Below, piece after piece: positions 21,001-24,000 of a stretch of DNA of 24,000 nucleotides; position 1 is the first letter of the stretch; each line of letters starts with the position of its first letter. This DNA is from Chlamydiia bacterium (GTDB lineage Bacteria > Chlamydiota > Chlamydiia > Chlamydiales > Rhabdochlamydiaceae): the NCBI GenBank assembly GCA_963804085.1, contig CAWDOQ010000017.1, forward strand, positions 127,243 to 151,242, written 5' to 3'. The position numbers were made by a program.

Positions 21001-24000
21001 CTCTTATCGATCAAAACCCCGCTTGCTGCGGCAAAAAACTTTGACGCCGTCATAATGAAGGAGACTGTCGATAAAGAGAAAATCAAACGGCTCTATCTAT
21101 CAGGGCAGAATCCGCCAGGCGTCTCCGAAACCCACTATGTTCAGGTCTCTTCCGTTCCCCAAGATGCTTAGAATAAGAATGTTAGTGAAAAATTATGCAT
21201 TTTAAGTGATATTTTTGTGTTAGAAATATTCATTTTATCATATAAATAAGAAAGATGAATATATGATTTATGGCATATGGCAAAACGACGAACGCTTTTA
21301 GCAGAACGATTAAGACTCGATACCTCGCTTAAAGAGACGCAAGCGCTGGTTCGCAAGATTGGAAATTTTCCCTATTATCGCTGGGTTCGAGATCTTAGAA
21401 AAAGCTTACATATGAGCCAGAAACAGCTGGCTAAGAGAGCGAAAATTACGCAACCCCAGCTCTCGAAAATTGAATCAGGACAGGCTAAGATTACCTTAGA
21501 AACTTTGGAAAGAGTATTTAATGCGCTTTTTTGTACTGCCTGGATACTCCCGCTTCCCAATGAAGATCTGGGTGACGTGATGAAGCAGCGAGCAAAATTA
21601 ACAGCAAAAAAGAAGCTCGAGTCATTGGTGGGAAGCATGGCTTTAGAAGAACAACTTCCATCGAAAGAGCATTTGGAAAAAAAGATCGAAGAAGTCGCAG
21701 ATGATTTAATGCGTTCTGGATCGACGGAGATTTGGGATTTATGACACCGGAATCGCTCGCGCTTATCCGTCAAAGAGGGCGCTTAATGGACGAAAACGGA
21801 CGAGTAAGAAAAACGGACTAAAATGGACGAGAATGGACAAGCGCCAGGAAAGAAACTTAAGCTAGTTCTCTTGGGCCCCGTCCGTTTCACGTCCATTGCA
21901 CGTCCATTGCACGTCCATTTTGGTCCGTTGGTCTTCCTGTCCGTTGGGGCCCGTCCATTAAGTGCGCCCTTCCATAGACGGAGACTTGTCGCTGCTCCCT
22001 CTGTCACATAAAATCTTTATTATTAAAAATGTTAGTTTTCTGTTTATTCATTTTCATGCTATAATTTTTGCCTATGACGTCAGCAATAGGTTTAAATCCT
22101 GCAAAACAAACTGCAGCAATAACAGGCGAAAAACCCTGCTACACAGAGCTTGCCGAACGCATTGTCGCGATCTGGCAGGCTGTATGTGTGTGGATTTGTG
22201 ACTTAGCAAATCGACTTTTGTCCTGGAATCAGAACCCGAACGACAAGCCTATAGCTCAATCTACGCCAGCCAAGAGCTCTCCCACCCAGTCCCCCATCCC
22301 CAAGCAGAGCCGTAATCTCGCAAAGCAGTGCTTCAATGCCTTTCGCCAGATGACACAATTTCTCGAGCCTGTAGAGATCATCCAATGCGAAGCCGTCTGT
22401 AAATCGTGGAAAGATGAGCGCCTCTGGCAAGCGCAAGGCGCAAACTACAACATGACAGCCCCCAAAAGCGGAAAATTTAAAGATCGATTCAAAGAGATTC
22501 ACGAGATGGCTTTTGGAAGAAAAGAGTGGAAAGAGCACCTGAAAGCAGACCCAGGGATCGCTCCCGCATCTTCCTCCTCAAGTCTACAAAGCAGCTCACA
22601 AACTCCAAGAAACGCACATCCTAACGCTCATCCCCAAAACAGTCGATGGCCAGCCGTTAAGCTTTAACACTTTTGCTCCCTTGGCGGAAAAGGCCGGCAT
22701 GAAGCTCTCTATTACCGCCTGTGTCTCCGGGAAATATGGAAATGAACCCGTGGTAAAAGCCATTTGGGTATGGATGCAAAAAGATGTAGAGCCTGGAAGC
22801 AGAAACAAGACACAAACCCAAGCAGAGCAAGATTATCCCAAGCAACTAGGAAGAGCACTTTACTATATCATCAGCACAGTGGCTCATTATGCCCGTTATA
22901 AGATCTGCCTCTTTTCTCAGCCGCAGTGGACCTACACACGCACAAGCGATGGCGGAGAAGATCAGATTGGTGCTTGGTATGTGGTTGTTGGGGGCTCCGC
23001 CCCGGGCGTTCTCGACGTCTACAGCCACGGCTATGCCAACGTCTACCACGGCGTGGCCTCTTTGGTGCCCGCAGAAGTTCAGGTCTCTTCCATCAAAGAG
23101 GGTGCTTAATGGACGAAAACGGACAAGTAAGAAAAACGGACAAGCGCCAAGAAGGAAACTCAAACTAGTTCTCTTGGGCCCCGTCCATTCGTGTCCATTG
23201 CACGTCCATTTTAGTCCATGGTTCTTTCTGTCCATTGGGGCCCGTCCATTAAGTGTCGCTGTCTCCCTCGACGGTCCTTTATATTGACTTTTTTTACCCC
23301 AAACACGTACAAGAGAAGTCATCTCGGAACTTTTTCATCTTTTGTAAGTTGCATTTTTGGGAGGGATTATGATTCTCGACTCTTGGAAAACATGGACAGC
23401 ACTAGCCGGGTCGATCGTTTCCCTTTCATTGGGAGCGCGCGCGTTTGCAGAGAGCGGATCCATCCAAGAGCCCCCTGAAAATAAAGAAGGCATAGAAGCG
23501 ACGGGCTGGAAGCGGATGCCCGGCTCTAAACACTTTTTTGTGACAGCAGAACTTCTCTATTGGCAAGCATTCGAAGAGGGGTTGGATTATTCTGCAACGG
23601 TCGATCAGAGACTTATCGGCGGGAGCATAATAAAAAATACGGCCAAAGTACATGAGGTCGGCTTTCAATATGACCCAGGTGTAAGGCTTGGTATTGGCCG
23701 CTACATTCCGCATAGCGAATGGGATCTGTATGCCCAATGGACCTACTTTAGAACGCACGCAGGCGACACAGAGCTAGGACATGGGCCCACTGCACGTCAG
23801 TCTCCCACACATCTAAAACTGCTTGTCCCTACACTCATCACAGTCGATCAAAATACGCATTTGAGTAATTTGGATAGTGCGCAAAGCGATTGGAGCATCA
23901 CTCTGCACAATGCAGTTGTTGAGATTGGGAGATCTTTTTCTTTAAACAAACATCTCGCGCTTCGTCCCAACATGGGAGTGATGGCTGCTTGGATCAATCA

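Follow-up and report, generated by a model that had tools for sequence, protein, structure and literature searches.

The DNA analyzed here, hereafter the window, is a stretch of 24,000 nucleotides from a Chlamydiia bacterium of the Rhabdochlamydiaceae (assembly GCA_963804085.1, contig CAWDOQ010000017.1, positions 127,243 to 151,242 of the forward strand). It encodes two NTT/TLC nucleotide transporters, a member of the chlamydial family DUF2709, and pgk, argS and tsaE, together with orphan genes of ankyrin-, tetratricopeptide repeat (TPR)- and F-box-like character. The nearest relatives of the NTT proteins are found in Chlamydiota metagenome-assembled genomes (MAGs), at 69-80% identity, and this, together with the DUF2709/NTT gene content, identifies the window as a chromosomal region of an environmental chlamydia. 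Four palindromic elements are located in this region (copies 1, A, C and D; Table 1), each built from an array of short units with a GGAC core facing an array with the complementary GTCC core. A preliminary description of the sequence had reported one of them, copy C, and had counted four copies in the window; all four were found. The GGAC foldback family is real, and resembles known bacterial selfish hairpin repeats more than a plasmid-style protein-binding array.

Architecture of the GGAC elements

Copy C carries terminal inverted repeats (TIRs; GGGCGCTTAATGGACG at 21777-21792 and CGTCCATTAAGTGCGCCC at 21952-21969) that are complementary but for a 2-nt AC bulge. Its five GGAC boxes lie at 21788, 21798, 21815, 21825 and 21835, with a spacing of 10, 17, 10 and 10 bp, and its seven GTCC boxes at 21880, 21891, 21902, 21913, 21923, 21939 and 21953, with a spacing of 11, 11, 11, 10, 16 and 14 bp; the right arm includes three tandem cacgtccattg units. 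Each of these components was located exactly as the preliminary description had it. The largest box cluster in 300 Markov-1 random windows contained four boxes, against five to seven in the elements. The extent originally given for copy C, 21771-21969, captures a real element but falls short of its true ends, which are placed further out (Table 1) because the homology between copies C and D begins and stops there. Similarly, what had been taken for a loop of ~40 nt with conserved ends is a conserved centre but not a loop: most of it is paired, and the apical loop of copy C is only ~6 nt. Copies A, C and D share a 7-nt non-complementary bubble in this region, with AAGCGCC opposite GGGCCCC. The centre motif GGACAAGCGCCA..TCTTGGGCCCNGTCC has three matches in the window and none in 100 shuffles, and its asymmetry gives copies A, C and D an orientation, which is the same for all three.

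Table 1. Positions of the GGAC elements, their shared centre and the associated strain differences in the window.
Feature	Position	Strand	Description
Copy 1	753..872		AAGGAC/GACC units on the left, GTCCTT/GGTC on the right; ~9-bp spacing; apex GAATTC
Strain-variable segment, 239 bp, holding copy A	4775..5013		replaced between identical flanks by hipBA
Copy A	4843..4985	+	5 GTGGAC boxes, centre GGACAAGCGCCAA..TTGGGCCCTGTCC, 6 GTCCAC boxes
Breakpoint relative to ERR10755942	21745..21746		past the stop codon of the helix-turn-helix gene; 20 bp and copy C absent there
Copy C	21766..21985	+	outer inverted repeat TCCGTC..GACGGA, TIR, 5 AAYGGAC, paired centre with asymmetric bubble, 7 GTCCRTT
Conserved centre of A, C and D	21835..21883 (in C)	+	GGAC-AAGCGCCA ... 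TTGGGCCCY-GTCC; from pattern search and alignments
Copy D	23089..23274	+	AAYGGAC/GTCCRTT units; decaying paralogue of C

Homology between copies C and D is restricted to the palindrome, starting with TCCGTC on the left and closing with GACGG on the right, while the flanks are unrelated; the element itself is therefore the duplicated unit. Relative to copy C, copy D is shorter by 20 nt (two units) in the left arm and by 12 nt (about one unit) in the right. Between the two, the box cores are identical at 38/38 positions, against 128/146 (87.7%) for the other aligned bases (naive P about 0.007), which modestly suggests constraint on the cores or their homogenisation. The two copies flank, in direct orientation, a 1.1-kb segment with two orphan genes, and the TIR of copy D provides the stop codon of the gene at 22699-23109. 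Copy A, in which the GTGGAC boxes are spaced at 9, 9, 10 and 9 bp and the GTCCAC boxes at 9, 10, 9, 9 and 7 bp, resembles copy C in an nhmmer comparison (E 9e-4). Copy 1 includes a cluster of GTCC boxes at 829, 838 and 847 and is without the GC-rich centre motif; it is located upstream of a gene start and not at a 3' end. The elements are 120-220 bp in length, with TIRs seen in C, D, A and the element of metagenome contig L052 described below, and the GGAC array precedes the GTCC array in every copy, never the reverse. The copies are intergenic, usually 0-100 nt from the stop codon of a gene; six of the seven elements examined (A, C and D, and those of contigs L052, L092 and L003) lie 0-100 nt past a stop codon or between convergent genes. 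An open reading frame (ORF) running across copy C is not on record, and a protein search with it found nothing; exact look-up of the ORFs around C and D left most of them without a record.

Each arm repeats in tandem a unit of 9-11 bp that has GGAC at its core. The number of units is not the same on the left and on the right (copy C, 5 and 7; copy D, 3 and 6; copy A, 5 and 6), and the differences between arms and between paralogues correspond to whole units gained or lost. The flavour of the unit is uniform across both arms of a copy and specific to that copy: AAGGAC in copy 1, GTGGAC in A, and AAYGGAC in C and D. The copies have no more than the 4-bp core in common, their 7-bp boxes varying from one to another, and the single units are not palindromic themselves. 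Most boxes are spaced at 9-11 bp; gaps of 14, 16 and 17 bp are also present. When the left arm is compared with the reverse complement of the right arm, the spacers match at 76-90% of positions (68% in D), and the non-core positions of the arms in copy 1 are 87% complementary. Since the spacers too are complementary, each arm is a genuine inverted copy of the other, and the boxes do not form two independent sets.

Folded as RNA, copy C reaches -102.8 kcal/mol (z -8.1) on the + strand and -104.5 kcal/mol (z -7.8) on the - strand. As DNA, copy A gives -47.6 kcal/mol (z -11.4) and copy 1 gives -34.6 kcal/mol (z -7.8), while the fold of copy D has decayed (z -2.0). Each copy is a long imperfect palindrome, and three of the four (1, A and C) fold far beyond shuffled sequences, in agreement with the earlier proposal of a very long hairpin upon transcription, the predicted fold of which physically holds on either strand. 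Positions at which the arms fail to match are not enriched in G.U-compatible changes on either strand, and so nothing points to selection on one particular transcript.

Strain variation and relatives elsewhere

Short Logan contigs from samples containing strains 98-99.9% identical to the window allowed the loci of copies A and C to be compared between strains. In ERR10755942 and ERR11523672, a 1673-bp hipB-hipA module stands in place of the segment that holds copy A. The hipA reading frame extends 12 nt into the shared flank; this suggests that the allele with hipBA came first and that the element allele is derived. This toxin-antitoxin (TA) allele (L009, 97-1769; also L010) comprises hipB and a split hipA, and the segment opens with a hairpin with a perfect 20-bp stem. 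In a third haplotype, from SRR22808002 (L253), copy A is represented by its start and the left flank is shorter; two further contigs, L252 and L011, end precisely at the two junctions (4774 and 5014). At the second locus, copy C is replaced in ERR10755942 (L001, 1212-1352) by an ORF overlapping the stop of a helix-turn-helix gene similar to mobile mystery protein A. The alternative allele at both polymorphic loci is a TA module, either hipBA or the mobile mystery protein A/B pair. With regard to the presence/absence polymorphism looked for in a mobile element, the element is missing from related strains at both comparable loci; the other allele, however, is in each case a different segment and not an empty site. 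A separate strain difference lies upstream of copy C, where the 2.5-kb segment 18336-20826, with small ORFs and, on the minus strand, a TPR-repeat gene (19575-20552), is absent from ERR10755942, in which 7 bp join 18335 to 20827.

The exact centre pattern had no match in genome, metagenome or viral contig collections, blastn of the element against plasmids and phages returned no match, and the whole window gave no Rfam match at the gathering threshold on either strand; a tRNA scan found nothing. No description of these GGAC foldback elements appeared in the literature searched, and the initial impression of an undescribed element is upheld across these searches. The syntenic loci in seven Chlamydiota MAGs (those with 69-80% NTT identity) have no GGAC arrays and gave no nhmmer match. 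A looser scan of metagenome and viral contigs for three GTCCRTT boxes at 10-11 bp returned, among the matches listed, mostly one-orientation tandem repeats or coding repeats, and the GTCCRTT array as such is thus common and not special. The comparable palindromic arrays were a minority among the matches listed (L052, L092, L113, L116, L105 and L220), of which only L052 and L092, both from one metagenome, are tied to Chlamydiota. Contig L052 is assigned to this phylum by a CT253-family lipoprotein (E 2e-33). The elements of L052 and L092 consist of ATGGAC units at 10-bp spacing, 12 vs 6 in the two arms of the former and 9 vs 5 in the latter; their termini are similar to those of copy C (GAGCGCAACTTGAATGGAC against GAGGGCGCTTAATGGAC), and nhmmer likewise finds both to resemble copy C. 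The L052 element folds with a z of -18 and is situated between the convergent genes accC and recN, overlapping both stop codons. These contigs indicate that the family, or at least its architecture, extends to other environmental chlamydiae.

Other inverted repeats were observed outside the window. In L003, a Chlamydiota MAG, convergent genes enclose a foldback (14070-14156) that is built from CGCAAAGA/TCTTTGCG tandem units, the arm rich in purines preceding the other; this foldback may be distantly related to copy 1. L052 carries, at 4104-4347 and 7035-7314, two copies of a very long compound palindrome with arms of 102 and 112 nt, composed of small GC-rich hairpins ending ..GCGTTGTAG; this separate family has the look of a GTAG-tagged dimer of repetitive extragenic palindromes (REPs), that is, REPIN-like. 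The phage contig L142 (also L247 and L060) has, at ~5880-6010, four GTCCGTTT units, a spacer and four AACGGAC-type units, all within the 3' end of a gene for a PriCT_2 + AAA_25 primase-helicase. These inverted GTCCGTT/AACGGAC arrays are probably an iteron-type phage origin, and indicate that arrays of this kind can work as iterons in a different context.

Foldback repeats and competing explanations

We interpret the GGAC elements as a lineage-restricted family of small, non-coding foldback palindromic repeats in an environmental Chlamydiota chromosome, selfish or near-neutral DNA akin to MITEs (transposable elements of the miniature inverted-repeat type) or REPs, and assign this interpretation a probability of roughly 0.58. 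It is the best supported of the three readings first proposed: the palindrome is the duplicated unit, four copies occur in 24 kb, related strains differ in their presence, and another Chlamydiota genome shows the same architecture. On this account, the copies would spread as units, by means of an enzyme encoded elsewhere in the genome or by recombination, and arm length would shift through replication slippage between tandem units. Arm-to-arm templated correction of quasipalindromes is an established mechanism, and repair of this kind, in place of a sequence-specific protein, could maintain both the palindromy and the uniform flavour of each copy. Any effect on the host would be expected to stem from the long hairpin, acting as a barrier at transcript 3' ends or as a fragile, recombinogenic site, and not from phased protein binding.

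Several findings weigh against this interpretation. Inspection of the flanks of copies 1, A, C and D revealed no direct repeat at the homology borders, and thus no target-site duplication at any copy; because this test failed, we call the elements MITE-like and not MITEs. Neither a cognate transposase nor a REP-associated tyrosine transposase (RAYT) is encoded within the 24-kb window, and only four copies were counted there. The strain differences are replacements of whole segments, with breakpoints 20-70 bp outside the palindromes, and so do not prove movement of the element. In addition, the excess conservation of the C/D cores hints at a constraint on the boxes, and the conserved non-palindromic centre and single orientation of A, C and D would not be predicted from pure self-templating.

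Known repeat families offer several points of comparison. Correia- and ERIC-type elements are comparable bacterial MITEs, the BOX elements of Streptococcus pneumoniae are modular and likewise close in build, and the FB transposons of Drosophila have inverted arms composed of tandem repeats. The closest in behaviour are bacterial MITEs such as QMITE1 and QMITE2 of Coxiella burnetii (PMC5896051), which are likewise small, non-coding, dispersed and TIR-bearing, intergenic or overlapping gene ends, able to form a long hairpin, strain-variable and resident in an intracellular bacterium. Unlike bacterial MITEs, the GGAC elements are found in the window with neither a target-site duplication nor a parent insertion sequence, and their arms are tandem 9-11 bp units, variable and unequal in number, in place of unique sequence. 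The closest modular build is that of the BrickBuilt MITE of Porphyromonas gingivalis (PMC4596501), an intergenic, species-restricted element with a variable tandem repeat within inverted-repeat ends; BrickBuilt, however, has one central array of 23-nt units in one orientation, whereas here two facing arrays of 9-11 bp units form the stem. The closest architecture is seen in foldback transposons (Drosophila FB; Galileo, PMC4168063), which have long inverted arms of short tandem repeats and arm lengths that are unequal between sides and copies, but which are eukaryotic and kilobase-sized, with some transposase partners known, and have no sequence relation to the elements described here. REPs are single hairpins of 20-40 bp with an unpaired tetranucleotide tag (GTAG or CGTC), the GTAG REPs being tied to RAYT transposases (PMC3733652). 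The GGAC elements share with REPs, REPINs and bacterial interspersed mosaic elements (BIMEs) the extragenic palindromes, often after genes, the dimers joined into larger hairpins and the variation between species, and many of their box contexts read CGTCC, as compared with the CGTC-tagged REPs; classification as REPs in the sense of that paper was nevertheless rejected, as size, tag and hairpin unit do not fit.

The preliminary description had favoured an iteron- or centromere-type array, and a broader form of this idea holds that the boxes, facing the centre, are phased duplex binding sites for a lineage-specific protein, whether iteron-, centromere- or operator-like. Plasmid R1 parC and the type I iterons of the phage P4 ori are single loci beside rep or par genes, with conserved boxes and free spacers. 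The GGAC arrays likewise present short boxes, most but not all of them about one helical turn apart, in two sets flanking a centre. The predominant spacing, the full conservation of the C/D cores while their flanks diverge by 12%, the constant order of GGAC before GTCC, the retention of boxes in copy D despite its decayed hairpin, and the inverted arrays at an origin position in phage contig L142 would all be accommodated by protein binding. However, common descent also explains the common box order, a mere 4-bp core is shared by all copies, and the gaps of 14, 16 and 17 bp place neighbouring boxes on different helical faces. In contrast to iteron and centromere arrays, the spacers are as complementary between the arms as the boxes are, the flavours are copy-specific, the four copies are dispersed among intergenic regions of housekeeping and effector genes, and a scan of the window found no rep, par or other partner gene nearby. 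The iteron/centromere proposal is not supported on these grounds, and we consider phased protein binding in general an unlikely explanation.

A role at the RNA level, in which a host-selected and immobile hairpin at transcript 3' ends terminates transcription in both directions, blocks RNases, provides a processing site or gives rise to small RNAs (sRNAs), also appears doubtful. The location of six of the seven elements past stop codons or between convergent genes would suit such a role, as would the very stable predicted folds and the polarity of the arms, which on either strand are A-rich at 5' and T-rich at 3', a feature of bidirectional terminators; the MITEs of Coxiella do give rise to sRNAs (PMC5896051). 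Against this, no U-tract follows the stems of copies A and C, for which reason an intrinsic terminator was rejected, and a terminator scan was negative at C, its only two sites being small and placed inside or after D. The absence of a G.U bias in the arm mismatches, the placement of copy 1 upstream of a gene start, the large bulges produced by unequal arms, the loss of most of the fold in D, the related strains without elements at the same loci and the lack of any Rfam family match likewise speak against selection for a transcript structure. A terminator or RNA-barrier activity is possible as a side effect of the foldback repeats.

Less likely still, the GGAC units may function as a signal that depends on orientation and is recognised by some protein or enzyme of environmental chlamydiae. 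Candidates for this role would be a factor of the nucleoid or of segregation that loads onto phased arrays, or a transposase or nuclease that is specific to hairpins and recognises the AAGCGCC/GGGCCCC centre. This proposal is kept at low probability because the conserved asymmetric centre, the C/D core identity and the alternation with TA modules are left unexplained by a simple selfish repeat. If true, it would account for the core conservation, the purine arm coming first in every copy and the TA-module alternation, and the Chlamydiota would have a dispersed chromosomal cis-element of a new kind.

It is improbable that the elements are remnants of a larger entity, whether an integrated plasmid, phage or island of which they would be the ends or the origin, or a system for the exchange of TA cassettes of which they would be the recombination sites. 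The TA module as alternative allele at both polymorphic loci, the 1.1-kb segment flanked by C and D in direct orientation and the variable neighbourhood with its 2.5-kb indel would fit such an origin, but the window has no integrase, recombinase or rep gene, the breakpoints differ from the element ends, the L052 and L092 copies are located between housekeeping genes, and there is no plasmid or phage similarity. Integron attC sites were rejected in particular, as the junctions are without the GTTRRRY core sites of the RYYYAAC...GTTRRRY arrangement and no integrase is present in the window. A chance pattern or assembly artefact is highly improbable: palindromes are hard to assemble, and the Logan contigs do break at or within them, but none of 100-300 random sequences attained the observed patterns, an independent assembly (L253) has the start of copy A, and homologous elements occur in independent metagenome contigs.

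Other candidates were set aside on more specific grounds. A CsrA-sponge RNA was rejected as its ANGGA motifs would be paired, DnaA or MraZ boxes are compatible with the GTGGAC flavour alone, and parS finds only a 9-nt half match in copy C.

Chlamydiae are usually considered repeat-poor; as seen in the window and in a second Chlamydiota genome, families of long hairpin repeats exist in environmental members. These elements mark sites of strain-level structural change, can rewrite the 3' ends of genes and break short-read assemblies, the last of which is relevant to Chlamydiota MAGs. While the GGAC elements do not by themselves open a long-standing question, arms composed of slippage-prone tandem units are a rare architecture in bacteria, and provide a natural system for the study of how palindrome symmetry is maintained.

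Other repeats and genes in the window

A 32-nt stretch, of which 15 nt are exact (GTTCAGGTCTCTTCC, then ..GCTTA), is common to 21139-21170 and 23077-23108, where it forms the 3' ends of two otherwise unrelated genes of 109 and 136 aa; the second adjoins copy D. This shared gene tail could be a solitary element terminus left behind, or a site favoured as a target. Paralogy of the two proteins was rejected as its origin, as their last 10 residues alone match. Between copies C and D, an orphan ORF at 22068-22667 has an F-box-like motif, LEPVEIIQCEAVCKSWKD, and no Pfam match. F-box-like motifs occur in effectors of amoeba symbionts.

Two more palindromes occupy intergenic spacers of the window. 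The first, at 7104-7351, is a different compound palindrome with outer arms of 33 nt (91% complementary) and inner arms of 39 nt (100%), located between the convergent genes for an NTT transporter and a CDP-alcohol phosphatidyltransferase; Logan contigs of related strains terminate inside it, at 7197 and 7233. The second, at 16391-16555, is long and nested, its arms measuring 46 nt (74%) and 28 nt (89%); unrelated in sequence to the GGAC elements, it fills the spacer between a Glu/Leu dehydrogenase-like gene and argS.

The two NTT/TLC paralogues (5568-7043 and 8510-10081) are in opposite orientation and have a 56-nt inverted match (I1) in common. Four tandem paralogous orphan genes lie at 971-4766 (repeat families D1-D3, D5 and D8), one of them with a weak ankyrin match. 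The fourth encodes 284 aa in the window and 308 aa in related strains, which indicates that the window copy is frameshifted or mis-sequenced near 4690.

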